Positions 1 to 31,422 of a DNA stretch of 64,000 nt are shown here, piece after piece. The DNA comes from a virus (lineage: Duplodnaviria; Caudoviricetes). The stretch spans positions 1-64,000 of the IMG/VR virus record IMGVR_UViG_2571042740_000001; one strand, written 5' to 3'. The stretch's first letter is position 1, and each line of letters starts with the position of its first letter. The position numbers were made by a program, and so were the translations under genes. The notes under the pieces were generated by a model. The model was not told the origin of the DNA. It saw nothing but the letters and a program-made list of their open reading frames with translations, and made no database searches.

Positions 1-507
1 CTACGGTAGAAAGGCCCCATACATAGCCTGATCTAACTCTGCGAAGCCAGTAGGAATACGACGCTTCTTGCTGTACTCTTGTACCTGCTTGCAACGTTTC
101 TCTGCATCATGTACAAGATCAAGTGGCTCAGAAGTATCAAGCTCATGAATACGCTCACACTGGGTATCTATGTAAGTCCATGCATCATCTACATCATCTG
201 CACCGAGTTCCTTGATTTTATTAAACATATCAAGTAATATCGTATGTCGTTTATTCTTTGTGAGTTCTTGAGTAAGGAACTCTAACGGCTCGTTTACTTG
301 TATGTAAGTAAAGTCAGGAAATGTCATCTGGAAGGTGAACTTATCAGGTATAGTACCGTACTGATCTCTGTGCTTCAGAATAAATTCTATCTGAGCAGGA
401 AACAGCTTGTAGTATGACTTATCAAACGAACAGAGTGTATCTATTTCTTCTTGGTTGTCTGATAATAAGATCCTGTTGATTACCTGTAATTCTACTGCGT
501 TAATCAT
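1..507 (-). CDS. Phage-type DnaB-like replicative helicase, N-terminal part (runs off the window)
   Basis: Ends in RRIPTGFAELDQAMYG, the typical entry into the DnaB/RecA-like ATPase domain. The N-terminus (FILKH..QYGTIPDK.TF...FPDF) resembles phage rather than chromosomal DnaB. Confidence 0.7.
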   Translation of the reverse strand: MINAVELQVINRILLSDNQEEIDTLCSFDKSYYKLFPAQIEFILKHRDQYGTIPDKFTFQMTFPDFTYIQVNEPLEFLTQELTKNKRHTILLDMFNKIKELGADDVDDAWTYIDTQCERIHELDTSEPLDLVHDAEKRCKQVQEYSKKRRIPTGFAELDQAMYGAFLP

Positions 508-1658
508 TTAATAATCACCCCCGTTAATACAGTTTTCATTCTTTCAAAGAACGGTCCTGAGCCTACCAAGGTATTCAGATTGGGGGATACTATGATAGTT
601 TGTAGCCCGTTGGTTTTACGGGTATGAATGAGATTAAGCAAGGTCTGAGCCTGAAAATCTCCGAATTTGACATAATCAATATTGGAGATAACAAGCAATT
701 TGGCCTTAGCTATGAATATTTGTTCATACTCAAACGCTTCGGGCATTTCTTTTACACTCCAACTATGTTGTATGTCATCCAGGTACTCACTGAAATTCAA
801 GTGATAAACTGCACATCTCAAACAGTTCCCTTTCCAGTGTGTGCATATCGCTGCGTAGATTAAGCGAGAAGCCATGTCTATGGTGTCAGGTGATATAACT
901 ACACTATAAGAATTAGGAGCCGCTGTGAGCCATTCTGAAACGTCTGAGAGCATCTTGGGCTGTATCTCGAAAACAGAAGAGTTACAAGACATCTTATTTC
1001 TCTCCAACAGATAAGAAAACTCCACTAAGGGCGGACAAGAATTATCGCATATGGTCCTACGACAATACTGTTTGAATGGACAATCCATAGTACCATATGC
1101 TATACCCTTGTTAAGCGCCGTTTTATATCGAGCCAGATATGGATTACGACTCTGAAAGAAATCAACACGGGCAGTTACACACTGTTTTGCAAGCTCAACA
1201 GGATCTCCGCATTTGTTTTGAATATAGTAGGTTTCTGGTGCGAACAGTGTAATATACGGCAGGAGACTACCCTTGAGAGGGTATTTATGCTGTACACCGT
1301 TATCACGTTCAAGAAGATACCTACGGACAACATATTCTTTGATAAACTCTGCGGTCTTAGGGATTACCTTACTCTCAGGCAGGCTATCCCATACTTCGAG
1401 AGTCTTATGAAGCACCCCGTCAATTTCTATATTTTCATAGAAGCTGATTTCTTCTCCATCCACCACTCTTGTAAGCTGATAGAAATGAGGGTATTTTATC
1501 ATATTCTCCCTTAGCTCATCATGACTATATCCATTGATAGGGATAATAACTCCTAAGTCCTCATCATAGTCTATACCGTCTATACGCTCATACATAGCTG
1601 CGGCACGGGTATGAATTAAATGATTAGGGTATAACTTCATCAGATTCCGATCAGTCAT
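504..1658 (-). CDS. Protein with C-terminal degenerate DnaC/IstB-like helicase-loader domain
   Basis: Cys cluster (CPF..YC...IC..SC), KLLVISNIDY (Walker B-like) and LLNLIHTR..NGLQTIIVSPN (DnaC-like). No GxxGxGKT. Overlaps the helicase start. Confidence 0.5.
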   Translation of the reverse strand: MTDRNLMKLYPNHLIHTRAAAMYERIDGIDYDEDLGVIIPINGYSHDELRENMIKYPHFYQLTRVVDGEEISFYENIEIDGVLHKTLEVWDSLPESKVIPKTAEFIKEYVVRRYLLERDNGVQHKYPLKGSLLPYITLFAPETYYIQNKCGDPVELAKQCVTARVDFFQSRNPYLARYKTALNKGIAYGTMDCPFKQYCRRTICDNSCPPLVEFSYLLERNKMSCNSSVFEIQPKMLSDVSEWLTAAPNSYSVVISPDTIDMASRLIYAAICTHWKGNCLRCAVYHLNFSEYLDDIQHSWSVKEMPEAFEYEQIFIAKAKLLVISNIDYVKFGDFQAQTLLNLIHTRKTNGLQTIIVSPNLNTLVGSGPFFERMKTVLTGVIIK

Positions 1659-1717
1659 CTTATTTACTTGAATTTCTCCGATAATTCTGTAAATTTCAAA
1701 TCAATACTCACCTACTT

Positions 1718-2074
1718 TCATTCGAGAAATATAGAGATATTATCTATATCACAGTTTTGATACAGCTCAGGTGCAATATTCTGAGCGATATTATCTACGT
1801 AATAAATATCAAAGTCATCTCTATATTCCTTTAGCTTATATTCCTCAGACTGAATATGCTGTACAAAAGCCCACCAGACGTATATAAACACCATAGTAAT
1901 TTTATTCTTCTTTTTTGCCGCATCAAACAGATAGATATATGCAGGCATGGAGGACTTAGAGGTGATTTCCTCGTCTTTATCCATCTGGCTTATCCAATAT
2001 TCAAGCTGCTTCGTAAACTCTGCGGTAGTCCCGCAGCATACGTCATAGGCATAACGAGCTATCTCATTCTGCAA
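1718..2074 (-). CDS. Hypothetical protein
   Basis: 118-aa ORF co-oriented with the helicase genes. Confidence 0.5.
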   Translation of the reverse strand: MQNEIARYAYDVCCGTTAEFTKQLEYWISQMDKDEEITSKSSMPAYIYLFDAAKKKNKITMVFIYVWWAFVQHIQSEEYKLKEYRDDFDIYYVDNIAQNIAPELYQNCDIDNISIFLE

Positions 2075-2375
2075 AGCAGTTTCCCGACCTACACTATTCT
2101 GTGCATATATACATCAAAACAGATTATTCAAGTTCTCCTTGCGAGGTAGTATGATAAAGGGGCGACTAATCCAGGTCGCCTTTTGATGTAAAAATAAGTC
2201 TAAGCAAGTACATAGACCAAATTAGAATATCTAAAATAGTCTATAGATTAAACTAGACTAAATTAGGCATAGTGGGAATACGGAAATGGAACCTGCAAAA
2301 CAACGACAGCTATTACCACAGTCAAGCGAGATGTACAACTGCAGGAATAATAAACAGTCAATGTTGAAAATGGGG

Positions 2376-2452: not shown

Positions 2453-2689
2453 TCAAAGAATAATACTGTATCCTCTTACATTATAAAGATAATACTCCAT
2501 AGATGGCCATTCTGTTACATAGTTACCGTCGCTGTCTCTGAGTGATGCAGCGTATGAGTAGTAAGCAAGAACGAGACTCGCATCTGTCGCATTGATCTGG
2601 CCGTCTCTGTTAATGTCATAAGCAACAAGCACGATCATATGATTATAAATGTCTCTATTATACTGTGTGGGTACGTCCTTCCAAGTTTG
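2453..2689 (-). pseudogene. 3' fragment of a dockerin-containing gene, probably cut by the element
   Basis: YDINRDGQINATDASLVLAYYS is a Ruminococcus-type dockerin Ca-binding repeat. The frame stays open upstream of ATG2638 to an in-frame TGA at 2690-2692. There is no RBS and the first dockerin repeat is missing. Confidence 0.7.
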
Positions 2690-2992
2690 TCAGTAGGGAT
2701 TGCTCAATCGGCGGAGAATGAAAATCCCGATTTTACGCCATTTTCTTAAAATCCGGTATTTTTGGATAGTTCCGAGCGAGGGATAAAGTTCTATTTTTGA
2801 AATGTTCATTCTGGCAGAATATCCCCTTATCAGAGGGATAAATGAAAAACAGCCCACCAGGTATGTCTCCGTCTTACGAATTATATCGTAATTTGGAAAC
2901 ACACCCAGTGGGCTGCTTCATTATTTACTTTTATGTATCGGCCTCACGGATCTTCCGCATCTGGATGCGATGGAAATATCATTCGGCGCTTA

Positions 2993-3021
2993 TTGCAATA
3001 AACCCCAATATATGGTATAAT
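2993..3021 (+). promoter_or_regulatory. Sigma-A promoter antisense to the LSR operon
   Basis: TTGCAA-17 bp-TATAAT with extended TG. Confidence 0.55.
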
Positions 3022-3039
3022 ACAGCTGATATCTACAGT

Positions 3040-3420
3040 TCAGCCTACCAGATGTCCTTCCTGCACACGATACGCCGTTGTAAGGTCGAATACGACCAAA
3101 TCTCGGTCAGGCACAGCTATGCCGCGTATACGGTATGTGGACTTCATATCCCAGCCGCAGGTCTGATATATAAAACGTACCATATCCATGCTTTTGAGCT
3201 CATAACTATCGTGTGAAGTATCCTCTGACAGCTGATGAGCTCCGCTTGACTTATAGCTGCACTTCTCAACAGCCAGCTTTCCATTCTCCGGATCTAACAG
3301 AAATCTGAAATACTGCGGTAAGCCAATAGCTTTCAGAGTTGTCTTGAATACAGTGATCCGTCCATATGCAACCGAGAAGCTGATTCCAAGATCAGCATTC
3401 TCCCACGACAGGTTCTCCAT
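3040..3420 (-). CDS. Stand-alone X-domain protein, paralog of the LSR C-terminal domain
   Basis: Aligns by eye with 3392..4186 and with the C-terminus of 4158..6014. Confidence 0.75.
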   Translation of the reverse strand: MENLSWENADLGISFSVAYGRITVFKTTLKAIGLPQYFRFLLDPENGKLAVEKCSYKSSGAHQLSEDTSHDSYELKSMDMVRFIYQTCGWDMKSTYRIRGIAVPDRDLVVFDLTTAYRVQEGHLVG

Positions 3421-4186
3421 CTGACACCTCCTCTTCTACGTCAGGGTATACTTCGCCCGTAGAATTTGCAGGGGCAGAATTATCCTCAAGAGTAAGCTGC
3501 TTGCCAGCCTGCTCGATCTCCACAGGTTTCTTGTCGCCTGTGAGCATAGCTACGTTGATATACCCGTTCTCGACTGTGACCTGTGTCTGCTTTTTATGCT
3601 CTTCCACAGGGACTCCGAATGTTCCAGCAATATCCTCGGAGTAGTATCCCTTCTTGTAGTCCACGGTCTCGTCGATCACTTCGCCCTTCTTGGGCTTTTC
3701 ACGGAATGTCTCCTTCACGATCAGGTCGAAAACATAATAGGTCTCGCCCTCAAACTCAATCTTATAGCCCAGTATCTTATAACGGCACTTAGAATCCCAA
3801 TGCATGAGTTCATACAGCTTATCCGTAAAATCGGGGCAGGTCATCTTACGGCTCTTACGCTTATCCGGCTTGGCTATGCACCAGCGCAGAGCATCCTTGT
3901 CGTTCTCCTGACAGCCCTTGACCGCAAACTTTTTCTCGTCTTCGCAAAGCAGCAGCTGTACAAAGACCACATCTTCCAGACCGTTGATGCAGGCGGTATT
4001 GAATGTGATACTGCCTTTTCTGATCGTAACAGCCGGATCACGCAGGTGTGCAAACAGTTCCTTGCGGACAACCACAAAGTTATAGCTTCCGAAAGCCTGT
4101 TCCAGCTCTCTTCTTCGGAGTTCCTTTTCGGTAGTCAGTTCTTCGAGCGTCATTTCTTCACTCGTCGGCATCATCTGCTCGGTCAT
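3392..4186 (-). CDS. X-domain protein with acidic tail
   Basis: AVTIRKGSITFNTAC...LMHWDSKCRYKILG...VFDL. Overlaps both neighbours. Confidence 0.8.
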   Translation of the reverse strand: MTEQMMPTSEEMTLEELTTEKELRRRELEQAFGSYNFVVVRKELFAHLRDPAVTIRKGSITFNTACINGLEDVVFVQLLLCEDEKKFAVKGCQENDKDALRWCIAKPDKRKSRKMTCPDFTDKLYELMHWDSKCRYKILGYKIEFEGETYYVFDLIVKETFREKPKKGEVIDETVDYKKGYYSEDIAGTFGVPVEEHKKQTQVTVENGYINVAMLTGDKKPVEIEQAGKQLTLEDNSAPANSTGEVYPDVEEEVSDGEPVVGEC

Positions 4187-6014
4187 ATCCTAAGTCCCAT
4201 CCTTCCATAATTGTTTCGGCTTCCTTCATCAGCTCTGCAAGAGTTTCTGAAGATAGTGCATTCATTTCTTCTATAACCTTTGCCGGTCTGAGAACATCCC
4301 AGTCACCACTGTAGTGCTGCTGTGACAGCAGATGTCCGCGTGTAATCGATACGATCGGAGTTCCAAAACCTGCACCCCATGACGGCGGATAGACTCTCAC
4401 AGTTTCCTGAACCACGATCTGCTCCTCATCATCTTTTTCCGGGACGATGACCTGCTCTACTGTTTTCGACACTACGGGTTCGTCCAGTTCAAATAAAAGG
4501 AGCTTATCAGAGCCGTTGCTGCGGAATTCTCCCTTAAATCTGTACTTGCCGTCATCCTCCCACGACATCAGGCTGAATATGACCTTTGCCAGCCCACGGC
4601 AACTCATGCTGTTCACGATCCACTTATCTTCTTTCAACCTTCCCCAGTGGATCGCATTCGGATTATCGCTCTCACAAGGGCGGATCGCGATGCAGTTATT
4701 CACAGTGTTGATAAGCAGTTCAACGTACTCTACATCCTCAAATTTCTTTAAGCACGCAGTACTAAAGCGCATCTTTCCGCCTGAAATCGTCAGAGACAGG
4801 TTATCAGAAGATGGAAAGAAATGTGAACTGACACGCTGATATCCGTTCAGATTCAGCTTTAGACCTGACTGGACATATTCTTCCTTTTCAATAACGGTCT
4901 GAACACTTTCACAGGCCTTCTGATAGTCCTCAGGAGAAAAGCCCTCCCAGTTCCGGTCAATCGGAACATATCCTTTGAGCGCACCGTCCACCACAACGCT
5001 TAGCACGGGCAGGGCATGCTTTTTTCTTTTGTAAAATGCAGATGCGCGGATAATCTGGGCAGCATTGAATACTTCACGGCTGATGATAGCATCGTGATGA
5101 TCACGCTTTCTATATTTGGGGAGCTTGCCGTCATTTTTTACTGCCTTATGCGTTTTGAAATCAGGCGTGTAAGTCTTATGAGCAAGGACATCGCCGCAAT
5201 GACGCTCATTGTCTATAATTTGGGTTATCCATGAAGATTTCCACTCGGTATTGCCAAGCTTGGTCTCACGCTGATAATCCGTCAGAAGATCGGCAATTTC
5301 CTTACTTGACCATCCGTTCACATACAGATAGTAAATGACCTTGACTGTCTCCGCCTCGGACTCGTTTATTACCAGTCCGCCGTCCTCGTCGTTGTCATAG
5401 CCCAGAAGCTCCGGAGTCAGGAAGATTCCGTTCTGGAAACGGCGCTGGACAGACCAGTTCATGATGAAGGACTTGGAGCGTGACTCCTCCTCGGCAACAG
5501 TAGCGAGGATAGTCAGAAGCATAGTGCCTTCTGCGCCCAGTGTGCAGAGATTGTTTTCATCAAAGCGCACGCCAACACCGTAGTTTTTCAACTCCTGAAC
5601 GATAGAGAGGCAGTCAACAACATTTCTGGCGAAACGAGCGATGGATTTCACAAGGATAAGCTGGACTTTTCCTGCTTTTGCATCCTCGATCAGAGACAGC
5701 ATACCTGCACGGTGAGACAATTCGGTTCCGGAAATACCTTCATCACTGTAGATGCCGGCAAACTCCCAGTTCGGATTCTCATTGATACGCTTGGTGAAAT
5801 CATTGACCTGTAATTCAAACGAGGAGGTCTGCTCGTCATTCTGTGTAGAGACACGGACATAGGCAGCGACCTTCATCTTCCTGTTTTCAATATCAAGGTC
5901 ACTATCTTCATTTGCAGGGATGACTTCAATCTCTGAAGGATCGATTCCCTTGTATTTTTCCCTGATCTCGCCTTTATGTTCAGAATTCCTGATTCTGCGC
6001 TTTGACGCCTTCAT
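4158..6014 (-). CDS. Large serine recombinase with C-terminal X domain
   Basis: AAYVRVST catalytic motif, KSIARFARN, recombinase domain (LLGYD...NERHCGD...HDAIISRE). Confidence 0.92.
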   Translation of the reverse strand: MKASKRRIRNSEHKGEIREKYKGIDPSEIEVIPANEDSDLDIENRKMKVAAYVRVSTQNDEQTSSFELQVNDFTKRINENPNWEFAGIYSDEGISGTELSHRAGMLSLIEDAKAGKVQLILVKSIARFARNVVDCLSIVQELKNYGVGVRFDENNLCTLGAEGTMLLTILATVAEEESRSKSFIMNWSVQRRFQNGIFLTPELLGYDNDEDGGLVINESEAETVKVIYYLYVNGWSSKEIADLLTDYQRETKLGNTEWKSSWITQIIDNERHCGDVLAHKTYTPDFKTHKAVKNDGKLPKYRKRDHHDAIISREVFNAAQIIRASAFYKRKKHALPVLSVVVDGALKGYVPIDRNWEGFSPEDYQKACESVQTVIEKEEYVQSGLKLNLNGYQRVSSHFFPSSDNLSLTISGGKMRFSTACLKKFEDVEYVELLINTVNNCIAIRPCESDNPNAIHWGRLKEDKWIVNSMSCRGLAKVIFSLMSWEDDGKYRFKGEFRSNGSDKLLLFELDEPVVSKTVEQVIVPEKDDEEQIVVQETVRVYPPSWGAGFGTPIVSITRGHLLSQQHYSGDWDVLRPAKVIEEMNALSSETLAELMKEAETIMEGWDLGYDRADDADE

Positions 6015-7050
6015 TATTGCCCCCTGAGTGTGATGATTTAGCTGCTTCTCCTGGCATTATCCAATACCAGGTCTTCATTTTTCGATATGACTTAATGCCG
6101 AGTTCTATTTTGACTTCATTCATAGTTTTTTCTCCGATACGGTATTCTGCCATGAGACGCTTTATCTCCATAGCCTCCACCGCACCTTTCTCCAAAGCCA
6201 TCTTTAAAAGAAAAGCTGCGCGCTCATGCTTATTGATTGGTAACTCTTCAATACTAGGCTCTGAATTACAAGATAAAACTATTCCGGGTCTCTCTGACGT
6301 ACCAATCCACCTGAATCCTGTGGTCGGACGTATCTCAAATAACAGATCTGCCCCTTTAGATTCTAGGCTGTTCTTTACCTGCCTTACAATACGGACATCC
6401 TCGTCCTCAGAGCTTCTCTCTACCTGAAGAACACTGCGAGCGGCAGCAACAACATCTATACTGCCTAGTCCACGATACAGATCCTTTGCACCTTCATTTT
6501 TACTGAAGTGTCCAATCAGTACAACAGCACATTTATATGTTGATGCCCACATTCCAATGCGGCGCATCAGTTTTCTTGCTTTTCCTGCCATCTGGAGGTC
6601 AGAATCATTACCGATATATGATTGAATCGGATCAATAACCACAAGACGAGGATTCCATTCGATAATAGCTCTACGGATTCGCTCATCATCAAGAGTCAGT
6701 CCATTGTAGACTTCTTCATCAATAAAAGCTATATTCCGGCAGTCGGCACCCGCGGCAACAAGTCTTGGTTTTATCGTATCCTTAACTCCATCCTCGGAAC
6801 ACTGATAAATGACCCTCTTCGGAGAACCAAATGATCTGCCATCAGGAGTTTGACCACCTTTTGAGAGTTCTGCGATCAAACTCATCATCAAGCTTGACTT
6901 TCCGCAGCCGGGATCGCCTTGCAGAAGTGTGATTTTACCAAGAGCAATATACGGCTGCCACAGCCAGCTGACGGGAACCGCTGATATGTCACTAAATAAA
7001 GTTAGTATTTTCGATTCCACAGTATTGCACACTCCCGTCTCAGTCATCAT
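5980..7050 (-). CDS. AAA_25/RepA-like RecA-fold ATPase
   Basis: Walker A GDPGCGKS, Walker B LVVIDPIQSY, GSIDVVAAARSVL. Confidence 0.85.
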   Translation of the reverse strand: MMTETGVCNTVESKILTLFSDISAVPVSWLWQPYIALGKITLLQGDPGCGKSSLMMSLIAELSKGGQTPDGRSFGSPKRVIYQCSEDGVKDTIKPRLVAAGADCRNIAFIDEEVYNGLTLDDERIRRAIIEWNPRLVVIDPIQSYIGNDSDLQMAGKARKLMRRIGMWASTYKCAVVLIGHFSKNEGAKDLYRGLGSIDVVAAARSVLQVERSSEDEDVRIVRQVKNSLESKGADLLFEIRPTTGFRWIGTSERPGIVLSCNSEPSIEELPINKHERAAFLLKMALEKGAVEAMEIKRLMAEYRIGEKTMNEVKIELGIKSYRKMKTWYWIMPGEAAKSSHSGGNNEGVKAQNQEF

Positions 7051-7093
7051 TATTTCATCTTCAATTATACAGTATGTAAGGATATCTTACAAC

Positions 7094-7192
7094 GAACCAA
7101 TGGATAGAATAATAGCGGTTTATTAGAACCAATAGATAGAATTATCTCTTAAGATGGTGCAATAGTAGGGAGAAAAGCAACCGCCATCTTAA
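7094..7192. repeat. 20-bp direct repeat pair plus 9-bp inverted repeat in a divergent promoter region
   Basis: GAACCAAT(G/A)GATAGAAT(A/T)AT at 7094 and 7126. TTAAGATGG at 7149 and CCATCTTAA at 7184. Confidence 0.75.
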
Positions 7193-7207
7193 AATTCAGA
7201 AAACAGC

Positions 7208-7236
7208 TTGCTATGTGTTCAACATGATGGTAATAT
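7208..7236 (+). promoter_or_regulatory. Promoter of the XRE regulator
   Basis: TTGCTA-17 bp-TAATAT. Confidence 0.6.
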
Positions 7237-7275
7237 ATATACTGCCATGCGGGCCATATAGAAAGGCTGAATTAT

Positions 7276-7617
7276 ATGGATGCAAAATTCGATTTAATCG
7301 GTATGCGGATTAAACTCTTTAGAGAAAACAATGGTTTATCGCAGGAGGAGCTGGGAGACAGAATTGGCATTTCGAATAGACACTTAAGCAAAGTTGAAAC
7401 GGGTGCCAAAAACCCAAGTCTTGAACTTGTACTGAAAATAGCTAATGCTCTAAAAATCACTGTAGACGACCTCCTCACAGATTATCTTACAAATTCCAAT
7501 GAGGAGCAGAACACAGAATTGCTGACTTTTTTCAGTGACTGCACTCCTGCGGAAAAAGCTATCCTCATGGATATGCTCAGACACATGAAAAAGCTCCTTC
7601 AGGAGCACGGAATCTAA
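7276..7617 (+). CDS. XRE-family HTH regulator
   Basis: LSQEELGDRIGISNRHLSKVETGAKNPSLE. Confidence 0.9.
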   Translation: MDAKFDLIGMRIKLFRENNGLSQEELGDRIGISNRHLSKVETGAKNPSLELVLKIANALKITVDDLLTDYLTNSNEEQNTELLTFFSDCTPAEKAILMDMLRHMKKLLQEHGI

Positions 7618-7708: not shown

Positions 7709-8119
7709 TTATTCGCCGGCTTTCAGCGCATAGTACAGTTTGGTGATGTATTCAGCCAGTTCGGCGCTCATATTCATCACAACCGATTTGCCGGAGATAT
7801 TATCCAGCATTTCCTTGGCGGATGCAAAGATATCTCCAATATCGGAATCCGAATGATCGGTTTGATCTGCTTTCACAAATGCAACCGCTTCATCGATCAG
7901 TTTTGCAAGGTGCTCGCCTTCAAGCACTGTCTTTAGCGGAATCGCATCCTGATCTTTGGCAAGAGCCGGAAGCTTCAGCACAATACCTTCGCTGAGCACA
8001 GCAGCCAGTTTTTGCTCGGCATCCTTACATCTGACAAGATATGTGCGTAGCAGAATTGCGATAATACGATCTCCGAAAGGAATGTCATCAATGCTCACAG
8101 AGTAAAATGGATGTTTCAT
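7709..8119 (-). CDS. Hypothetical protein
   Basis: 136-aa ORF with GGAGG RBS. Confidence 0.65.
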   Translation of the reverse strand: MKHPFYSVSIDDIPFGDRIIAILLRTYLVRCKDAEQKLAAVLSEGIVLKLPALAKDQDAIPLKTVLEGEHLAKLIDEAVAFVKADQTDHSDSDIGDIFASAKEMLDNISGKSVVMNMSAELAEYITKLYYALKAGE

Positions 8120-8294: not shown

Positions 8295-9362
8295 TTATTT
8301 ATAGTATTCAGCGTACCACTGCGCGAACTTTCTCAGTCCTTCACGGATGCTGATCGTCGGTCTGAAACCGTAGTCATCCTCCAGAGCTTTACTGTCCGCA
8401 TAGGTCACAGGTACATCTCCGGGCTGCATTCCGACTAGTTCTCTGTGTCCCTCAAAGTCATAATCAGCCGGAAGAACACCTGCATTCACAAGCTCTTCCT
8501 GTAATGTGCTGATATAGTCCAGCAGGTTCTCAGGAGTACCGCCGCCGATGTTATACACGGCATAAGGCGGAAGCGGCAGTCCGTCCTCGCCGTTCTGCTT
8601 CTCCGGCGCTCCCTGCATGACTCTGTATACGCCCTCAACAATATCGTCAACGTATGTGAAGTCGCGCTTGCAGTTGCCGTAGTTGAAGATCTTGATCGTC
8701 CCGTCTTTCGCTAAAGTGTTCGTAGCTGAGAAGTAGAACATATCCGGTCTGCCTGCAGGACCATAAACTGTAAAGAAACGTAAGCCGGTTGAAGGAATGT
8801 TGTAGAGTTTGGAATAGCTGTGAGCAAGAAGCTCGTTGCTCTTCTTAGTTGCAGCGTAAAGACTTACCGGATTATCCACCTTGTCCTCAGTACTGAACGG
8901 AACCTTCTTGTTTCCGCCATAGACAGAAGAGCTTGACGCATACACAAGATGCTCTACAGGATTATGACGGCAGGCTTCAAGGATATTGTAGAAACCGATG
9001 ATATTGCTTTCAATATACACATCCGGGTGGTCGATGGAATAACGGACACCTGCCTGTGCTGCTAAGTTGACCACTACATCAAAGTGATACTCAGCAAACA
9101 GCTTGTCGATCAGTGCCTTATCGCCAATTGAACCTTTCACAAATATGTGTCTGACTGGCGAAGTGATCGCAGCTTCTTTGATAAGAGACAGACGATATTC
9201 CTTCAGTGCCGGGTCATAGTAGTCATTCATATTGTCAAGAGAGACCACTGTGCCGGATGACATTTCTTTCAGCAGTCTCAGCACAAGGTATGCACCGATG
9301 AATCCGGGAGAACCGGTCACAAGGATGGTCTTGCCGTTTAAATCAATTCTGGTTTTGCTCAT
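8295..9362 (-). CDS. NAD-dependent UDP-glucuronate 4-epimerase (CapI/WbnF-like SDR)
   Basis: ILVTGSPGFIG, NLAAQAGVRYS, YASSSSVYG, YAATKK, GLRFFTVYGPAGRPDM. Confidence 0.9.
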   Translation of the reverse strand: MSKTRIDLNGKTILVTGSPGFIGAYLVLRLLKEMSSGTVVSLDNMNDYYDPALKEYRLSLIKEAAITSPVRHIFVKGSIGDKALIDKLFAEYHFDVVVNLAAQAGVRYSIDHPDVYIESNIIGFYNILEACRHNPVEHLVYASSSSVYGGNKKVPFSTEDKVDNPVSLYAATKKSNELLAHSYSKLYNIPSTGLRFFTVYGPAGRPDMFYFSATNTLAKDGTIKIFNYGNCKRDFTYVDDIVEGVYRVMQGAPEKQNGEDGLPLPPYAVYNIGGGTPENLLDYISTLQEELVNAGVLPADYDFEGHRELVGMQPGDVPVTYADSKALEDDYGFRPTISIREGLRKFAQWYAEYYK

Positions 9363-9365
9363 ATC

Positions 9366-10859
9366 TTAATCTCTTCTGAACAGATCTCTTGTATAAACCT
9401 TTTCTTCTACGTCATCAAGAATAGAGTCATATCTGTTAGCAACGATACAGCCGCACTTCTTCTTGAACTTCTTAAGGTCGTTTACAACAACAGAACCAAA
9501 GAATGTGCTACCGTTTTCAAGTGTAGGCTCGTAGATAATAACAGTTGCTCCTTTGGCCTTGATGCGCTTCATAACGCCCTGAATAGATGACTGACGGAAG
9601 TTGTCTGAGTTGGATTTCATTGTGAGTCTGTATACGCCCACAACGATTTCTTTCTGCTTGCTTTCCTGTTCAGCAGAATAGTCAGCACTATTGCCATAAG
9701 TACCCGCGATCTCCATGATACGGTCAGCAATGAAGTCTTTTCTGGTCCTGTTTGACTCAACGATAGCAGTCATCATGTTCTGAGGAACATTCTGATAGTT
9801 TGCAAGAAGCTGCTTTGTGTCCTTGGGCAGACAGTAGCCGCCGTAACCGAATGATGGATTGTTATAGTAGTCGCCCACACGAGGATCAAGACAGATACCA
9901 CGGATGATATTGGCCGTATTCAGTCCCTTGACCTCTGCGTATGTATCCAGTTCATTGAAATAGGAAACACGCAATGCAAGATATGTATTAGCAAACAGCT
10001 TAACAGCCTCTGCCTCAGTTGTAGCCATAAAGAGAATATCAATGTTTGGCTTAATAGCGCCCTGCTGTAAAAGTGCAGCAAACTCCTCGGCAGCCTTCAT
10101 GTTAGCGTCATCAGAGCCAACAATGATACGAGAGGGGTAAAGGTTATCGTAGAGTGCCTTGGATTCTCTGAGGAACTCAGGGCTGAATATGATATTATCC
10201 ATGCCCATTTTCTCACGCACCTGCGCGGTATAGCCAACAGGAATCGTCGACTTGATAACGATAGTAGGCTTTTTCTTCTTTTTTCCCGTTACATCCTTTA
10301 TGAGGGAAAGAACTGCTTCTACAGCGGAGCAATCGAAGAAGTTTGTCTTCGGATCATAGTTTGTAGGTGCAGCCACGATAATGAAATCTGCGTCCTTGTA
10401 TGCAGATTCGCCGTCTGTTGTAGCCTTGAGGGAAAGCTGACGCTCTTCATGCTCAGCAAGATACTGCTCAATGAAGTCATCCTGAATCGGAGACTGCCAG
10501 TTATTCAGCTTCTCCACCTTTTCCGGTACGATATCCACAGCGGTAACATCGTTGTGCTGTGAAAGCAGAACTGCGAGGGACAGTCCGACATAACCGGTAC
10601 CTGCTACAGCGATCTTCTTGCGTTCAATCGGCGCTGCCTCTACTGCGTCATCTTCCAGAACATCAGCATTGTCAAAACCAAGGACTGTGCTGAGTGCAAG
10701 GAGCTGATCCACAGACGGTGTATAGTCTTCACTTTCCAGTCTGGAGATGATTGAACGGTTGATGCCTGTCTTTTTTGACAGGGTAAGCTGCGACATCTTG
10801 ATTGCCTTTCTTCTGCTTACAACAGTCTCAGCAAGCAGCTTCGAAGATAAGTGCTTCAT
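9366..10859 (-). CDS. ugd: UDP-glucose 6-dehydrogenase with N-terminal XRE-HTH
   Basis: Residues ~10-65 form an HTH ([28 protein letters not shown]), then [30 protein letters not shown]. Confidence 0.92.
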
Positions 10860-10875
10860 AAGTACCTCCTATGCA

Positions 10876-11028
10876 AAGTGTTACCACTAGCAACACTTGT
10901 GATTTCTAATATGATGATATTATTATAGCAGATGTTATGCAAAAAGTCAATGTATACGTTGCCAAATATGAACTCATAAATACAATTCACTTTATACATT
11001 GTGACGCCAGTGTTGCTATCGGTAACAC
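10876..11028 (-). promoter_or_regulatory. ugd promoter flanked by two operators
   Basis: TTGACT(10945-50)-17-TATAAT(10922-27). GTGTTACCACTAGCAACACT at 10878-10897 and an inverted 18/20 copy at 11009-11028. Confidence 0.75.
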
Positions 11029-11033
11029 AAAAT

Positions 11034-11085
11034 AAAAAAGCCCACTAAGCTGCTACCGGATTCATTCGGTAGTTGCTCAGTGGGC
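11034..11085 (-). terminator. Rho-independent terminator
   Basis: GCCCACT...AGTGGGC stem with a T-tract on the minus strand. Confidence 0.65.
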
Positions 11086-11105
11086 GGAGGTGGTAGATAC
11101 GCCTA

Positions 11106-11432
11106 TTAAATAATGATCCATTTTCCATTGCGGGCAGAGCCTTCTCGTTTGATGCGATTATTCTTCTTCAAGTTATCCAATGCTGTTTTTGTCTGTTTGA
11201 GAGTAATACTCAGTTTAGAAGCTATTTCCATTTGTGTTATACAGGGATCTGCTTTAATCAACTGAAATACCAGTTCAACCCTTTCAGCTATTTCAGTACC
11301 TTTTTTAGTACCTTTTTTAGTACCTTTTCCAAAAAGGGACTGATCTTTCTCAACTAAAGGAAGCGTAACAATCGTCTTATCAGGCTCATTTGTTTCAGTA
11401 TTGCCGAAGAACTCCTCAATATTCGGCTCCAC
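11106..11432 (-). CDS. Small winged-HTH protein, like the C-terminus of RecG-C/Schlafen ATP-binding regulators; start uncertain, possibly a remnant
   Basis: ITQMEIASKLSIT...IKREGSARNGKWII. 12-bp tandem repeat encoding KGTK. Promoter TTGTAA-17-TATAAT at 11457-11485. Confidence 0.55.
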   Translation of the reverse strand: MEPNIEEFFGNTETNEPDKTIVTLPLVEKDQSLFGKGTKKGTKKGTEIAERVELVFQLIKADPCITQMEIASKLSITLKQTKTALDNLKKNNRIKREGSARNGKWIII

Positions 11433-11511: not shown

Positions 11512-12702
11512 TTATGTTGTTTCGACCGCAATATCCTCTTCGGTGATAACCACACGCTGGATTTGTCCGGCGTTCTCGGCATTCACCTCACACCCGATGC
11601 TCTCTTCTATAGTCTGAAGCAGCAGATCCTCCTTGATCGTCCTCAGCTTGCAGCCATTTCCTTTCCGTCCCTCATGGCGTCCTCTGCAGGTCCATACCTT
11701 ATGTTTGATTCCTTTCGGGCCGTTCAGTGTACGTCTTGTCATCGGTTCACCGCACTCGCCGCAGAATAGCTTTCCGTACAGGAAGTGCGGTCTGCCGCCA
11801 ATTCTTCCGACCGCAGCCGTAACAGCTTTCTTTTGTCGCATGATCTCCTGCACGGTATCCCATGTTTTCCTGTCCACAATAGCCTCATGATCATTTTCAA
11901 GATAATTGCTCTCATACGGCGCTCTTTCATCCGGCTTCTTCGTCAGGAAATTCTTTGGAGGCTGTTTCTGAAGCAGCTTATCTCCCATATATGTCTCATT
12001 CTGAAGGATATACATGATATTATTATGCGCCAGCGGCTGGCCTTTTTTCGTCCTGATTCCATAATCAGTCAGTAAACGGCGGATCTCCTCAATGCTCTTG
12101 CCTTCAATATACATCTGAAAGATCATGCGGACCGCATCCGCATCCTGATTCGGTACAAGTTTGCCGTCAACACAGTCATATCCAAGGATACGGTTATTCC
12201 CAAGGTTATACTCTCCGCGCTTGAAGCGTTCCCGATATCCCCACCTGACGTTTTCCGAAATAGAGCGGCTCTCGTCCTGCGCGATTGCAGAGAGAAATGA
12301 AAACATCATGGAACAGGAAGGTTCGGCGGTATCCAGATTCTCTTTATCAAAATGTATATCAACGCCGTTACCGTGCAGAAGATTGGCGTATTTCTGGCAA
12401 TCCACGATATTTCGTGAGAATCTGGATATGCTTTTTACAAGGATATAGTCCACTTTGCCGTTCAGCGCATCCTTGATAAGTCTCTGAAATCCCGGGCGAT
12501 TTGAGGCCTTGACACCGCTTTTCTCGTCGCTGTATACTCCTGCAAAGTCCCAGTCGTCATGCGCCTGTATGAGCCTTGTATAATAGGAAAGCTGCGCCTC
12601 GTAGCTTTCTTCCTGCTCGTCAAGAGTTGTAGACACACGGCAGTAGGCCGCTACACGCTTCTTATGCTGATCTCTGATTCTGGGGATTCTTGTAATCTTC
12701 AT
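11512..12702 (-). CDS. Large serine recombinase with Zn ribbon
   Basis: AAYCRVST, KSISRFSRN, CGECG...C...C. Confidence 0.92.
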   Translation of the reverse strand: MKITRIPRIRDQHKKRVAAYCRVSTTLDEQEESYEAQLSYYTRLIQAHDDWDFAGVYSDEKSGVKASNRPGFQRLIKDALNGKVDYILVKSISRFSRNIVDCQKYANLLHGNGVDIHFDKENLDTAEPSCSMMFSFLSAIAQDESRSISENVRWGYRERFKRGEYNLGNNRILGYDCVDGKLVPNQDADAVRMIFQMYIEGKSIEEIRRLLTDYGIRTKKGQPLAHNNIMYILQNETYMGDKLLQKQPPKNFLTKKPDERAPYESNYLENDHEAIVDRKTWDTVQEIMRQKKAVTAAVGRIGGRPHFLYGKLFCGECGEPMTRRTLNGPKGIKHKVWTCRGRHEGRKGNGCKLRTIKEDLLLQTIEESIGCEVNAENAGQIQRVVITEEDIAVETT

Positions 12703-14234
12703 TTCTTATCCCTGCCTTTCCCTTTACTTGTCTTTTTCTTTTCAGCTTTCCTCTGCTGCTGATTATAATAGCGCTTTGCAATTCTGCCCGGAAGATCCGA
12801 ATCATAAAATACGTCTGAAGGAACCGTTGTCACAAGACCACATTTCCAGAAGACTTTCATGGATCTGTCATCCGGATCAGGTGTTCCTTTCACTTCCAAA
12901 GCAATCAGTTCCTTTGTGGTCCTGATGTGTTTTCCGAACTCAATATGATCAACAAGATCATCCACCCACCAATAATCGACCTTTTTCATTCTGGGATATT
13001 CTCTTTTGTATCTCAGCATAATTTCTGCCTCAGAGCCGAATTTTGGGCTGTCAAGTTTCTTCTCTACAATGCCGGCGTCCAATGTGTGATAAGCATTGAG
13101 CAGCGCTTGATCCACAAAGCTTGCACGGATAATAAACTGCCGACAGGCATGCTCACCGATCTCGCAGCTCCATCCGCTTCCGGGTCTTTGTATCTTGATA
13201 CTCCTCTTAAACAGTCTGGAACCGCAGATCGGACACACGAGTTTGTCGCCGAGCGGGTACTGATTGTTATACTTACCGGGCATATCCGGATGAGGTGTTC
13301 TTCTTAATGCAAAGATCTGCTTACACCGATTGAATTGCTTCCTGCTGATTATGGCTTGATGATGATTTTCAATATAGTAACTGGGCACCTCAGTGGTATC
13401 ATTCTTTATTTGCTTATGTGTAATATGGCTTTCGCAGATGGTCTTTTGCAGGAGAATATCTCCACAGTATCTTTCATTCTGAAGCATTAACCGCACTGTA
13501 CACATGGACCACGTTTCGCAGTTTTCCGGTGTTGGAACATGATTGCTCTGTAAATGCTTCATGATCTTGTCGATGGACTCACCGTGCTCATACAGCGTGA
13601 ATATTTCCTTCACAACCCTGGCCTGTTCCGGCACGATCTGGTATTCTCCGTTTTCATTCTTCTCGTATCCGTACAGTTTGCTCCAACGGGATCTTCCTTC
13701 CTCATAGCGTTTTCTGATACTCCATGTCGTATTCAGCGAAATAGAGCGGCTTTCCTCCTGTGCAAATGCTGCAAGGACGGTCAGAAGCATTTCTGAGAAT
13801 GCAGTTCTTGTGTCGATATGATTGCTTTCAAAGATAAGATGTACTCCGATCTCATTGAGGTGTCTGACAAACGTCAGGCATTCAAGGGTATTTCTGGCAA
13901 AGCGGGAAATACTTTTAGTTACGATAAGATCGATTTTTCCTGCTTCACAATCCCTGATCATTTTCCGGAATTGTTTTCGCTTTGAAGCACTGGTACCTGT
14001 CATGCCTTCATCTGCATAGATTCCTGCCAGCTTCCAGCCCGGTCTGCTTTCTATCATATCAGTGTAGGATCTGACCTGATTCTCGAAGCTGGTTCTCTGC
14101 TCATCATTGTCAGTAGACACACGGCAGTATGCTGCAACTCTCAGTTCTTTCGCAGAATCCGGCTCTTCAGGACTCTGCGGCTCAAGAATGATCTTCTCAA
14201 TATTCATAATTTGCCCCTTTCTGAATGGGATCAA
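12699..14234 (-). CDS. Large serine recombinase
   Basis: AAYCRVST, KSISRFARN, CPICG. Confidence 0.92.
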   Translation of the reverse strand: MIPFRKGQIMNIEKIILEPQSPEEPDSAKELRVAAYCRVSTDNDEQRTSFENQVRSYTDMIESRPGWKLAGIYADEGMTGTSASKRKQFRKMIRDCEAGKIDLIVTKSISRFARNTLECLTFVRHLNEIGVHLIFESNHIDTRTAFSEMLLTVLAAFAQEESRSISLNTTWSIRKRYEEGRSRWSKLYGYEKNENGEYQIVPEQARVVKEIFTLYEHGESIDKIMKHLQSNHVPTPENCETWSMCTVRLMLQNERYCGDILLQKTICESHITHKQIKNDTTEVPSYYIENHHQAIISRKQFNRCKQIFALRRTPHPDMPGKYNNQYPLGDKLVCPICGSRLFKRSIKIQRPGSGWSCEIGEHACRQFIIRASFVDQALLNAYHTLDAGIVEKKLDSPKFGSEAEIMLRYKREYPRMKKVDYWWVDDLVDHIEFGKHIRTTKELIALEVKGTPDPDDRSMKVFWKCGLVTTVPSDVFYDSDLPGRIAKRYYNQQQRKAEKKKTSKGKGRDKK

Positions 14235-14395
14235 CTGAGTATTATCCCTCAGCGTTATCCTATTATTGCGTAAAACAGCCGATATATCAAGTCATTTCGC
14301 AATCATAAATCGGAGAATAATCCCGATGTTTCAGCAGGATAACTGGTCAATATACAGAAAAAAGCGGCCTCCTGTAATCAGAAAGCCGCATAGTA

Positions 14396-15871
14396 TTATT
14401 TATTATTCCGCACTTCTTCAACAAGCTTCGGAAACTGTGAAGGGTACCTCAGAAGATAGGCATCCCATAATTCTGCCTTGTGCCTTGGATCCTGTGAGTC
14501 CCGCAGCACACCGGAAGATAATGTTGTCACACTGCCGCATTTCCAGTGAATGCTAATCGTTCTGTCATCAATACCGCCTTTTTTCAGTTCAGAAGCCGTG
14601 TGGCTGTGCAAGCCAAAATCGATCCTTTCAACCAGATCATCCAGCCACCAGTAATCAATTTTACTGAATGATGGATGTTTTTCTTTTACCTGCAGGAGCA
14701 GTTCTGCATTTTCTGCTCTATCAGCATTTTTGCTATTTACGATACGCTTCACTTCTTCTAAATCAAGCATTTCATAGGCTTTAAGAATTGCTTTTTCTAC
14801 TTCCTGAGACTGTATTACGAATTCTCTGCATGCTCCTTCGCCCTCACAGCAGAAATGAGTATAACAGTTCTGGATCAACAGTTTTCTGTGGCGGAGAACA
14901 TGTCCACAATAGGGGCAGCGGATGAATTCTGCAAATGGATACTGCAGCGGCGTTGTTGATTTCTTCAGTTCAAGGATCACATTGCACCGTTCAAACTGTT
15001 TCCTTGATATAATGGGCTCATGGTGATTTTTTATATATACACTTGGCAGTGCTCCGTTATTCCGGCGTGAACGATGAGTGATATAATCCTTTACATAGTA
15101 TTTCTGAGCTATGATATCACCAACATATTTCTCATTGGCTATCATGTAGTGGATCCTTGAATCGTCCCAAACCTTATCTTTTCCATCCGGTCTCGTATAT
15201 CCTTTCTCATACAGTATCCTTGTTATCTCAGGAACAGATGTCCCGTGTTCATATAAATCAAAAATCAGTCTGACGGCCTCTGCCTCTCTTGGAACGATTT
15301 CTATATTATCGTTTGCTTCATTCTTTCGGTAACCGTAGCACCTTATCAAAAGCGGTTCACCGTTCTGAAGCCGTTTCCGTTTTCCCCATCTTACATTCTC
15401 CGAATGTGAATGGCTCTCTTCCTGGGCGAACGCCGCAAATACAGAAAGCAGTATTTCGGATGAGATCATATCTGTATCGATTCCTTCTTTTTCAAGTATT
15501 AATCGGACTCCAAGATCTCTGAGCTTTTTGATACAATTCAGTGCATCAAGCGTATTACGCGCAAATCGGGACAGTGATTTACAGATCACGCAATCTATAA
15601 GGCCTTTTTCACAGTCTTCAAGCATTCTGAGGAACTCTTTACGTCTCGCCATCATTGTCGCAGAAGTACCTCTGTCGGCGTAGATCCCTGCAAACTCCCA
15701 GTCGGGCTCCGAAGAAATCTTTTCTGTATATACCGCAACCTGTGTTTCGTAACTGGTAAGCTGCTCTTCAGACTTTGAGGAAACACGACAATAAGCACAT
15801 ACACGCAGCTTCGGCTTTGTGGTCCCGGAAATATCCTGATTGAGTATTCGCTTTATCTTTGTGCTTCCCAC
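14396..15871 (-). CDS. Large serine recombinase
   Basis: CAYCRVSS, KSLSRFARN, CPYCG. Confidence 0.92.
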   Translation of the reverse strand: MGSTKIKRILNQDISGTTKPKLRVCAYCRVSSKSEEQLTSYETQVAVYTEKISSEPDWEFAGIYADRGTSATMMARRKEFLRMLEDCEKGLIDCVICKSLSRFARNTLDALNCIKKLRDLGVRLILEKEGIDTDMISSEILLSVFAAFAQEESHSHSENVRWGKRKRLQNGEPLLIRCYGYRKNEANDNIEIVPREAEAVRLIFDLYEHGTSVPEITRILYEKGYTRPDGKDKVWDDSRIHYMIANEKYVGDIIAQKYYVKDYITHRSRRNNGALPSVYIKNHHEPIISRKQFERCNVILELKKSTTPLQYPFAEFIRCPYCGHVLRHRKLLIQNCYTHFCCEGEGACREFVIQSQEVEKAILKAYEMLDLEEVKRIVNSKNADRAENAELLLQVKEKHPSFSKIDYWWLDDLVERIDFGLHSHTASELKKGGIDDRTISIHWKCGSVTTLSSGVLRDSQDPRHKAELWDAYLLRYPSQFPKLVEEVRNNK

Positions 15872-16821
15872 AATTTTACCTCCTTTTCCGCGATCTTTTG
15901 GCTTTTTTCCATCAGATATTTTTCTTCAGCAGAGAATACTGATCTTCCGCCTCCGATTGTCCCGTGTTTTATCAATTCCTGAACAATGTCGAATAACTCG
16001 TGGCTTACGATGGCCGGATGATGCCCTTCAATAAGGATCTGATCTACAAAACCTTTATTTTTGACTCTTTTTTCCTTTCCGTTACTATCAATGATCGTAC
16101 ATTCTTTGTTGGATAGGAAATCACCCACATAGTTCTCACTGCGCAGAAGCAATGCCACAGTAGGATTTGTCCATACTTTTTCGCTTCCTTCTTCTCTTTC
16201 CATACGATTCATTTCATCTCTGATTTCAGAGTATGTGTGGCACATAGCCGCCATATAGAAGGCCATTCTGACAACTTCTGCCTGATTCGGAACGATCACC
16301 CATCCATGATTTTTTCCGTCAGATGTGTAGCCATATCTTGGAGGAGACCATGTTTCTCCTCGTTCAAGGTGTTTCATTCTGCTCCATGCCTGATTCTGCG
16401 ATAAAGAAATGCTCTCTTCCTGCGCGATCGTTGCAAGTATACCGAGTATCAATTCTCCTGTCATGGTATCAGTATCAAGGTTTTCTTTCTCAAATAATAC
16501 ACGCACCCCAAGTTCCTTGAGATGTCTGACCGTTTCAACACAGTCTGCCATGTTTCTTGCAAATCGTGATATACTTTTCGTCAGGATAAGATCGATCTTG
16601 CCGTCTTCACAATCCTTAATCATACGATTCAGTTCTTCACGGTTGTACATCTTTCTGCCGCTTTTTCCGTGATCACCGTACACTCCGACAAACTCCATTT
16701 CCGGATCTGAGTTTATCAGTCTTTCGTAATACTCGCATTGTACTTCAAATGAGCCGTCCTGAGTATCACTTGCTGTGCTTACGCGGCAGTATGCACACGC
16801 TCGTATTTTCTTGTTTTCCAT
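15853..16821 (-). CDS. Serine recombinase (catalytic and recombinase domains, no Zn ribbon)
   Basis: CAYCRVST, KSISRFARN, HPAIVSHE. Confidence 0.9.
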   Translation of the reverse strand: MENKKIRACAYCRVSTASDTQDGSFEVQCEYYERLINSDPEMEFVGVYGDHGKSGRKMYNREELNRMIKDCEDGKIDLILTKSISRFARNMADCVETVRHLKELGVRVLFEKENLDTDTMTGELILGILATIAQEESISLSQNQAWSRMKHLERGETWSPPRYGYTSDGKNHGWVIVPNQAEVVRMAFYMAAMCHTYSEIRDEMNRMEREEGSEKVWTNPTVALLLRSENYVGDFLSNKECTIIDSNGKEKRVKNKGFVDQILIEGHHPAIVSHELFDIVQELIKHGTIGGGRSVFSAEEKYLMEKSQKIAEKEVKLWEAQR

Positions 16822-31371: not shown

Positions 31372-31422
31372 GCGGATCACCTGCCTTTCGCATGGGTATA
31401 TTCAAGCATTAAAAATGTGCTG

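Follow-up and report, generated by a model that had tools for sequence, protein, structure and literature searches.

A large serine recombinase operon with three copies of an unnamed domain at the end of a mobile element of Clostridia

The DNA analysed here, referred to as the window, is the stretch of 64,000 nucleotides at positions 1 to 64,000 of the IMG/VR virus record IMGVR_UViG_2571042740_000001 (Duplodnaviria; Caudoviricetes), a siphovirus-type prophage region as judged from gene content at the level of Pfam families. Close to one end of an element in this window, four overlapping minus-strand genes encode a RecA-fold ATPase, a large serine recombinase (LSR) and two small proteins, here named X2 and X3. 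The recombinase, LSR(X), has no recognisable zinc ribbon and carries in its C-terminal part a domain, X, which on sequence comparison is one domain in three copies, one fused to the recombinase and the others found in X2 and X3. The operon is read, with a probability of about 0.6, as the module by which a temperate phage or integrative element of rumen and gut Clostridia is integrated and excised, and X2 and X3 would serve in it as accessory subunits.

The operon and its surroundings are organised as follows, with the basis of each assignment in brackets:
7276 to 7617, plus strand: XRE (Cro/CI-type) helix-turn-helix regulator, 113 aa, divergent from the operon (gene map, Pfam, PHROGs)
7051 to 7275: divergent control region (consensus match of a promoter-like site only)
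5980 to 7050, minus strand: ATPase (AAA_25, RecA-fold), 356 aa (Pfam)
4158 to 6014, minus strand: large serine recombinase LSR(X), 618 aa (Pfam, family alignment)
3392 to 4186, minus strand: X2, 264 aa (BLASTP, family profiles)
3040 to 3420, minus strand: X3, 126 aa, a bare X domain (BLASTP, family profiles)
2679 to 3039: P' arm of the attachment site at the element terminus, reaching from the TT of the crossover (2679-2680) as far as the stop codon of X3

The four minus-strand genes overlap head to tail by 35, 29 and 29 nt, and 225 nt separate the start of the XRE gene from that of the ATPase gene. Within this interval a promoter-like site for the operon lies on the minus strand at 7092-7064 (TTGTAA-17-TATAAT, a consensus match only). 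A first-pass annotation made from the sequence had described an overlapping four-gene operon with a divergent XRE regulator, and the gene map agrees with it.

The recombinase and the three copies of the X domain

LSR(X) contains a Resolvase domain at residues 49-196 (PF00239, E 5.3e-27, covering profile positions 1-143 of 145) and a Recombinase domain at residues 219-322 (PF07508, E 1.1e-16). These are preceded by a conserved N-terminal extension and followed by a 73-aa linker, the X domain (about residues 396-512, nt 4479-4829), a tail with an FG.P motif and a terminal helix. The predicted nucleophile is Ser56 within the motif RVST, all four residues of which (R54, V55, S56 and T57) are invariant in 28 relatives, as is the stretch SIARFARN, and the enzyme looks catalytically intact and active. 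The catalytic domain has its best PDB match in 3g13, a 'putative conjugative transposon recombinase' (E 1.1e-39); the PDB sequence matches of the protein also include the TP901-1, SPbeta YokA and phiC31 integrases, and its Recombinase region matches residues 183-294 of the SPbeta integrase.

Classical large serine integrases use a zinc ribbon with an embedded coiled coil for synapsis, and the known recombination directionality factors (RDFs), which bind an integrase and so switch it from integration to excision, are unrelated to the integrases themselves. No match to Zn_ribbon_recom (PF13408) was found in LSR(X) with Pfam at E <= 0.1. The neighbouring recombinase at 11512-12702 matches the same model at 1.2e-12, and the model therefore works in this genome. 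The stretch between the Recombinase domain and X comprises 73 residues and holds a single Cys. Neither a zinc ribbon nor a long coiled coil appears in the secondary structure of an AlphaFold2 (AF2) model of the full-length protein, which is of low confidence (predicted local distance difference test, pLDDT, 56.4); in this same poor model residues 407-523 repeat the order of secondary structure elements seen for X2. The absence of a zinc ribbon, noted in the first-pass annotation, is thus borne out by the silence of Pfam at E 0.1 and by the short gap with one Cys.

The relationship between the three copies was examined with family alignments of 29 X2 relatives, 22 X3 relatives and 28 recombinases. 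LSR residues 395-554 align with X2 residues 40-194 in BLASTP at E 3e-16 (26% identity), and the corresponding family profiles match over 175 columns with a probability of 99.4% (E 5.5e-22). X3 matches X2 in BLASTP at E 1e-5 and in the profile comparison at 95.3% (E 2.1e-8). Against LSR the BLASTP match of X3 is similar (E 3e-5) and the profile match weaker (49.9%, E 1.6e-4; 64.1% when the LSR C-terminal part alone is used), so X3 joins the X family mainly through X2. The paralogy proposed at the outset, i.e., one domain in three copies of which one is fused to the recombinase, is supported by these profile comparisons. Five columns are invariant in the joint alignment of 44 sequences (Cys, Trp, Tyr, Gly and Phe), the Phe lying in a closing F-D-L strand. 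Beyond the X domain, LSR and X2 have a tail motif in common, Y..(I/W)A.(T/S)FG.P, that is absent from X3. X2 begins with an N-terminal helix, continues with the X domain (about residues 38-160), in which lies a basic loop, KPDKRKSRK, and ends with the conserved FGVP tail and an acidic C-terminus, and its alignment has 40 invariant columns that extend well beyond the X domain. The basic loop is found in X2 only.

Searches of Pfam, PHROGs, NCBIfam and PADLOC assigned neither X2 nor X3 to a family. Sequence comparison with the PDB, made both for a single protein and for the X profile, gave no match that would name the domain, the best hit of the profile being an antibody chain at E 1.4. A search of the ESM Atlas for X gave clusters of 'hypothetical protein' and one automatically named 'Integrase family protein', and a further query returned empty.

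A number of in-frame chimeras were seen in the library of representative proteins, in which an N-terminal fragment of an unrelated gene is followed by the C-terminal part of X2, the point of fusion varying between them (P0284, P0287, P0292, P0298, P0303, P0310 and P0378). The partners are a GATase, a galactokinase, a phosphoglucomutase, an epimerase, a tape measure protein, a prophage tail endopeptidase and a partial resolvase, and the X2 allele is identical in four of the chimeras (P0284, P0292, P0303 and P0378). They could be assembly chimeras or real products of rearrangement. One of the loci fetched for the survey described below is itself rearranged (L078, 8001-12399): X2 residues 90-216 and X3 stand in one place, and 4 kb away residues 29-80 of the ATPase run directly into X2 residues 11-79.

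A model of X2 residues 32-197, made with AF2 from the 44-sequence alignment, reached a mean pLDDT of 78.4 with a core above 87. The order of its elements is strand-strand-helix-strand-strand, basic loop, strand-helix-strand-strand-strand, i.e., two similar halves, and the predicted fold is a two-fold beta/alpha barrel-like domain. Foldseek found no PDB structure at E <= 0.001 for this model, the rows for clamp domains having template-modelling (TM) scores of 0.1-0.2. The VIA exhaustive structure search placed MraZ (1n0e_A) first of 48,161 chains (Z 3.4, root-mean-square deviation 3.5 A over 96 aligned residues), with plant B3 pseudobarrel domains lower in the list at Z 2.2-2.5; none of the 48,161 chains reached Z >= 5, and a repeat search gave a best Z of 3.3. 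By the guidance that comes with this search, models without a true match usually reach Z 7-8, so the match to MraZ, which falls below that level, is no more than a lead. By sequence, hhalign of the X profiles against 26 MraZ sequences gave probabilities of 0.1-0.3%, and the Pfam models MraZ and MazE_antitoxin do not match X. The AbrB/MraZ-like barrel that the first-pass annotation had considered possible is thus a candidate fold, for which the sequence profiles give no signal and the structure search has MraZ as top match at a score too weak to count. In BFVD two entries matched at E <= 0.001, both uncharacterised phage proteins: Gp105 of Lactococcus phage KSY1 (129 aa), which was the best, and an unnamed 228-aa entry.

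Distribution and co-inheritance of the operon

Relatives of X2 number 3555 among clusters at 90% identity; none of the 120 listed has a Pfam domain, and those with a name are called 'hypothetical protein'. The C-terminal region of LSR is found in 866 clusters at the same identity, nearly all of about 600-620 aa and with Resolvase and Recombinase domains, and a profile of all three X copies retrieved 2570 representatives at 50% identity, 1321 of them at E <= 1e-10. Members of the branch are common among Clostridia of the rumen and the human gut as well as among Ca. Heliusvirales phages.

Gene order was surveyed in 79 loci that were fetched with X2 patterns from named genomes and metagenome-assembled genomes, loci without the required flank being excluded from each count. 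The genera include Ruminococcus, Blautia, Faecalibacterium, Clostridium (C. fessum), Dorea, Coprococcus, Anaerostipes, Hespellia and others, and among the named isolates are Ruminococcus flavefaciens MC2020 and MA2007. Of 74 loci with at least 800 bp of upstream sequence, 68 have the C-terminus of LSR immediately before X2, and the N-terminus of LSR is present upstream in 59 of 65 (at least 2000 bp). The ATPase gene precedes LSR in 49 of 57 loci (at least 3100 bp), and a recognisable XRE gene, divergent and in the same place and orientation, is present in 40 of 55 (at least 3800 bp). Downstream of X2, X3 is found by tblastn in 67 of 70 loci with at least 700 bp on that side. A word-based search gave only 32 clusters for X3, as if it were lineage-specific, and this is rejected on the tblastn count. 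The co-occurrence of the operon genes across Clostridia, which the first-pass annotation had put forward for checking, is borne out by the counts for LSR, X3 and the ATPase.

An even sample of the class gave X2 matches at E <= 1e-10 in 6 of 300 genomes (one further genome was unscored). All six have, in addition to X2, a weaker X match in a frame of 573-640 aa just upstream, and no LSR(X) without X2 was found in the 300 genomes. The identities of the genes co-vary across loci (Spearman rho 0.60-0.87), with medians of 38% for X3, the fastest-diverging copy, 54% for X2 and 60% for the N-terminal part of LSR, and the order LSR(X)-X2-X3 is held down to about 40-45% identity in several families of Clostridia and in phages. 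Nineteen phage records match X2, most of them from phages of Lachnospiraceae in the Ca. Heliusvirales. One record of this group was examined, PV036411.1; its order is again LSR(X)-X2-X3, and no ATPase gene was found beside this triplet or at the other end of the record. The retention of the triplet in the absence of the ATPase ties X2 and X3 to the recombinase and not to the ATPase.

The ATPase itself matches PF13481 (AAA_25, E 2.9e-24), has the Walker A motif GDPGCGKS, and gives weak matches to RadA and matches to primase/helicase families in PHROGs; its C-terminal 60 residues match the end of the PHROG 'DNA transposition protein'. It is missing in 8 of 57 loci compared to 3 of 70 for X3. A necessary role for the ATPase, as might be read from the initial proposal, is weakened both by these losses and by its absence beside the triplet of PV036411.1.

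The element end, the attachment site and the insertion targets

The element ends at window position 2679, 361 bp past X3. Similarity to seven near-identical loci (L003, L004, L006, L007, L008, L009 and L018; 88-97% over kilobases) stops exactly there (TTCCAAGTTTG...), and loose contig ends are found at 2679 in the sequencing runs labelled X2, X3 and X5, which come from three further studies and are not to be confused with the proteins, and at 2673 in run X1. The location of the operon at the element end, as first proposed, is confirmed by this shared break in similarity and by the contig ends.

What follows beyond 2679 differs between copies. In L003, L008 and L009 there is a common sequence of 53-208 bp ending ...CACCTTTTATAAATAAGAGG, which is read as the other (right) end of the element, so that the head-to-tail or circular junction would represent attP. 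Only the last 17-20 bp of this right-end sequence are present in L007, L018 and run X2, and in L004, L006 and runs X3 and X5 each copy has its own unrelated flank. In the genome of the window itself the right end is present once, on contig C19. A TT is common to attL, attR and the head-to-tail junctions, and at the level of these junction sequences the crossover is shown to be this dinucleotide. The near-identical window-type element is thus found at many different junctions, and it looks like a multi-site element.

Features of the terminal arm (2679-3039) are a single copy of an 18-nt direct repeat (CGATTTTACGCC..., at about 2728-2745), an arm of a 13-nt inverted repeat (ATCGGCGGAGAAT, at about 2706-2718), a pair of AGGGATAAA repeats and, after X3, a long hairpin. 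In the rebuilt attP the two copies of the 18-nt repeat lie about 31-65 bp either side of the TT core, an arrangement that was given by 0 of 300 dinucleotide shuffles, and several AGGGAT(A/T) repeats are present. On sequence grounds the attP seems to be about 570 bp long, made up in an L008-type junction of about 210 bp of P arm and 361 bp of P' arm, and both arms carry repeated motifs. In distant subfamilies the att motifs found for the window-type element are not conserved.

Some observations on these junctions stand by themselves. On the contig of L009 (11,167 bp) the genes X3, X2, LSR, ATPase, XRE, ORF136, epimerase and dehydrogenase form a block that recurs head to tail after about 8.84 kb, and a distance of 160 bp separates two copies of the first 53 bp of the right arm; the unit might represent a small element free of phage genes, in circular or tandem form. 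In L007 (9508-16792) a stretch of right-end sequence 18 bp long connects the left end to the final 190 codons of a gene resembling tape measure, after which the genes are collinear with the window from 27070 down to 14323, as if the segment 2679-27084 had been circularly permuted. An outward promoter-like site spans the junction at window 2657-2684, with the -35 TTGGAA contributed by the element and the -10 TATAAT by the flank (a consensus match only).

In the window's own genome the two element ends are on different contigs. On C19 the right end (attR) cuts a Bac_transf gene, encoding a priming sugar transferase, at profile position 65. At the left end (attL) the 15 bp beside the element continue the same Bac_transf frame (...NTP/KDVPT...), as checked against an intact paralogue 1 kb away, and thereafter the left flank is a 61-aa dockerin fragment (Dockerin_1, one repeat; window 2453-2678). 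Joining the left flank with the right flank of C19 gives an open frame of 230 aa that reads as sugar transferase and then dockerin; this is no natural gene, and the reconstruction was rejected. Further to the left, window positions 1-2100 hold phage-like replication genes of lower GC content. The corresponding part of C19 (about 20563-23008, locus L082) contains the truncated sugar transferase (167 aa), 208 bp of right arm, an open reading frame (ORF) of 234 aa and then a full-length diverged transferase paralogue, which heads a polysaccharide gene cluster. As no phage genes follow the right arm on C19, the arrangement of the element ends in this assembly is not that of a simple prophage.

The choice of target recurs elsewhere. 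In two other subfamilies, represented by loci of Blautia, Dorea, Coprococcus and Anaerostipes, synteny breaks 149-184 bp past X3, within Bac_transf and at its G(T/P)RP motif (profile positions 100-103). In these subfamilies five loci with Bac_transf at the break score above the Pfam cut-off and two below, and in one locus the neighbour is instead a weak match to Polysacc_synt_2. Next to the window-type copy in L006 lies a DegT-type sugar aminotransferase (66.7 bits). Flanks outside polysaccharide genes, judged by eye, are a transporter-like frame in L025 and a transposase-like frame in L069. As some flanks are such other genes, insertion in polysaccharide loci, mainly in the gene of the priming sugar transferase, is recurrent and not exclusive. 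Translation of the flanks followed by a Pfam scan worked better for finding targets than tblastn with one sugar transferase of the own genome, which detected the target gene in only 3 of 54 loci with enough downstream flank.

Next to the operon, and elsewhere in the window, the following genes are recognised:
7709 to 8119, minus strand: ORF136, no family (Pfam)
8295 to 9362, minus strand: NAD-dependent epimerase (Pfam)
9366 to 10859, minus strand: UDP-glucose/GDP-mannose dehydrogenase with an N-terminal HTH_3 domain (Pfam)
16975 to 18162: endolysin
26494 to 31380: tape measure
55856 to 58291: D5-type primase

Dit and Gp37-like tail genes are also recognisable. The block from 2679 to about 10934-11133, i.e., the module with ORF136, epimerase and dehydrogenase, is common to L006, L007, L009 and L010, and homologues of the epimerase and dehydrogenase are found near the module, on either side, in the distant loci L020, L027, L039, L040, L042-L044, L057 and L064. 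Four further serine recombinase genes (396, 511, 491 and 322 aa) stand in tandem on the minus strand at 11512-16821, directly before the endolysin gene, and among these only the first (11512-12702) matches Zn_ribbon_recom. One to three extra recombinase genes are likewise found upstream of the LSR(X) operon in many related loci (e.g., L020, L027 and L033), and also in phage PV036411.1.

Possible roles of X2 and X3 and relation to known systems

We infer the participation of X2 and X3 in recombination, and with it the heteromeric complex proposed in the first-pass annotation, from paralogy, gene overlap and co-inheritance. In the proposed mechanism the zinc-ribbon and coiled-coil arm would be replaced by the X domain, a beta/alpha domain of about 120 residues, together with its conserved tail. 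X2 (X domain and tail) and X3 (X domain alone) would be translated from the same overlapping operon as the recombinase and act in its nucleoprotein complex, where they may bind the repeated sites in the long attP arms or pair with the X domain of the recombinase itself. In this way they would supply site selection, synapsis control or directionality, as the zinc ribbon, the coiled coil and the RDF do classically. The XRE protein would repress the operon, and the RecA-fold ATPase would be a frequent and dispensable helper, perhaps in replication or processing of the excised circle or in target capture. A place for X2 and X3 in the recombination complex is favoured because the enzyme region to which they are paralogous is precisely the one that stands in for the arm for site recognition and synapsis, because their genes overlap the enzyme gene and each other, because they are kept with the recombinase when the ATPase is lost, and because attP is long and carries repeated motifs in each of its arms.

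A number of points weigh against this reading. DNA binding by X is not evident, as the X domains of LSR and X3 are not basic (isoelectric points 5.7 and 5.9), and no solved DNA-binding fold is convincingly matched by the predicted X model, with a best Z of 3.4. The absence of a coiled coil relies mainly on sequence length and Pfam, since the model of the full-length LSR is poor. X2 occurs without LSR upstream in 6 of 74 loci, and because the loci were fetched via X2 the co-occurrence counts are biased to arrangements that contain X2 and cannot show LSR without X2. As for the attachment site, the 13-nt inverted repeat of attP was matched by 4 of 300 shuffles and is not kept in L009, and a single clean attB cannot be rebuilt because the left flank turns into dockerin after 15 bp. 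Co-transcription with the integrase is moreover unusual for the RDF of a phage serine integrase.

It is conceivable, at somewhat less than even odds, that the arrangement goes further and that LSR(X), X2 and X3 form a heteromeric machine in which the non-catalytic X subunits, seated on the arm repeats of attP, set pairing and direction and steer insertion into polysaccharide-synthesis genes. If true, serine site-specific recombination would have a third architecture, in addition to the accessory-site synaptosomes of resolvases and invertases and the integrases gated by a coiled coil.

A close rival to the subunit model is a decoy or inhibitor role, in which X2 and X3 would be regulators that compete with the recombinase for DNA sites or for X-X contacts and thereby damp or gate recombination; we regard it as rather unlikely. 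Truncated transposase inhibitors are a precedent for damping by domain-only copies. That X2 and X3 are paralogous to the non-catalytic part only, that X3 is a bare domain and the fastest-evolving copy (median identity 38%), and that their genes overlap the LSR gene, with predicted co-expression, would all fit a regulator. On the other hand X2 is conserved well past the X domain, with its own tail, an N-terminal helix and 40 invariant columns in 29 sequences, which is more than a simple decoy would need; the observations fit the two readings alike.

With still less probability, the ATPase, X2 and X3 would make up a module for replication or maintenance of the excised circle, the ATPase as a RepA- or DnaB-like helicase and X2 and X3 as binders of origin iterons, with LSR merely sharing their DNA-binding domain. 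The AAA_25 and PHROG primase/helicase matches, the direct repeats beside the crossover and the 8.84-kb head-to-tail unit of L009, which could be a circle, are in keeping with this. It is however made less likely by the phage arrangement, where PV036411.1 keeps LSR(X)-X2-X3 without the ATPase; the ATPase is also lost more often than X3 (8/57 against 3/70), and the tail motif of X2 is common to LSR and not to the ATPase. Least probable of all is a function outside the DNA transactions of the element, i.e., as lysogenic-conversion or exclusion factors whose similarity to the LSR tail is left from an old duplication: morons are frequent beside att sites, the cargo nearby is related to polysaccharides and the X fold resembles small uncharacterised phage proteins, but the 29-nt overlaps at the LSR-X2 and X2-X3 junctions, the retained LSR/X2 tail motif and above all the fixed synteny, held to about 40-45% identity in several Clostridia families and phages as is not usual for morons, speak against it.

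Compared to classical integrases such as phiC31, Bxb1, A118/LI and SPbeta SprA, LSR(X) has the same Resolvase and Recombinase domains, a gene near att and a dinucleotide crossover, here TT. It differs in lacking the zinc ribbon and coiled coil, in the place of which it has the X domain and tail, in having two stand-alone paralogues of its C-terminus in the operon, and in an attP of apparently about 570 bp compared to the minimal attachment site of roughly 50 bp of the classical enzymes. A functional likeness to the lambda-type intasomes, with their tyrosine integrase, arm-type sites, Xis and IHF, may be seen in the long attP with arm repeats and the small accessory genes by the integrase; the enzyme family and chemistry are different, and the partners of LSR(X) are paralogues of the recombinase's own C-terminus. 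The two similar halves of the predicted X domain may recall the swapped-hairpin proteins of the MraZ/AbrB type, with MraZ as top structural match at Z 3.4 only and no sequence-profile signal to MraZ.

Among the LSRs described as 'multi-targeting' in passages of one survey is the DUF4368 clade with its TnpX/TndX-type enzymes (Durrant et al., 2022; PMC10083194). This type resembles LSR(X) in its occurrence on clostridial mobile elements, in the match to the conjugative-transposon recombinase 3g13 and in the many insertion junctions. DUF4368 (PF14287) gave no Pfam match in LSR(X) at E 0.1, the own genome having it on another contig only, and hhalign of X against the C-termini of 10 DUF4368 recombinases gave probabilities of 0.1-1.1%; assignment of LSR(X) to the TnpX/TndX type is ruled out by both results. 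For TnpX, unlike LSR(X), no paralogous small partners are described in the available passages of PMC10083194. Neither the X domain nor the operon is mentioned in the available passages of PMC10083194, PMC12823448 and PMC5883640, and no description of the domain, the triplet or the insertion target was found in the literature, where members may be listed in the supplements of bulk LSR catalogues. Within the libraries and literature searched the system is thus uncharacterised, as the first-pass annotation had assumed, and the module appears to be a large, conserved and unstudied branch of serine integrases with paralogous partner proteins. The X domain deserves a family entry, as every copy is currently a 'hypothetical protein'.

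Serine integrases are valued for their short site and their independence of cofactors, and their directionality is understood via the zinc-ribbon/coiled-coil arm and an unrelated RDF. If X2 and X3 are subunits, the branch would represent an unstudied variant of the control of serine recombination, possibly with different rules of target choice. Where insertion repeatedly takes place in priming sugar transferase and polysaccharide genes, lysogeny would alter the cell surface that phages and hosts meet, which would be of consequence for the ecology of gut phages.

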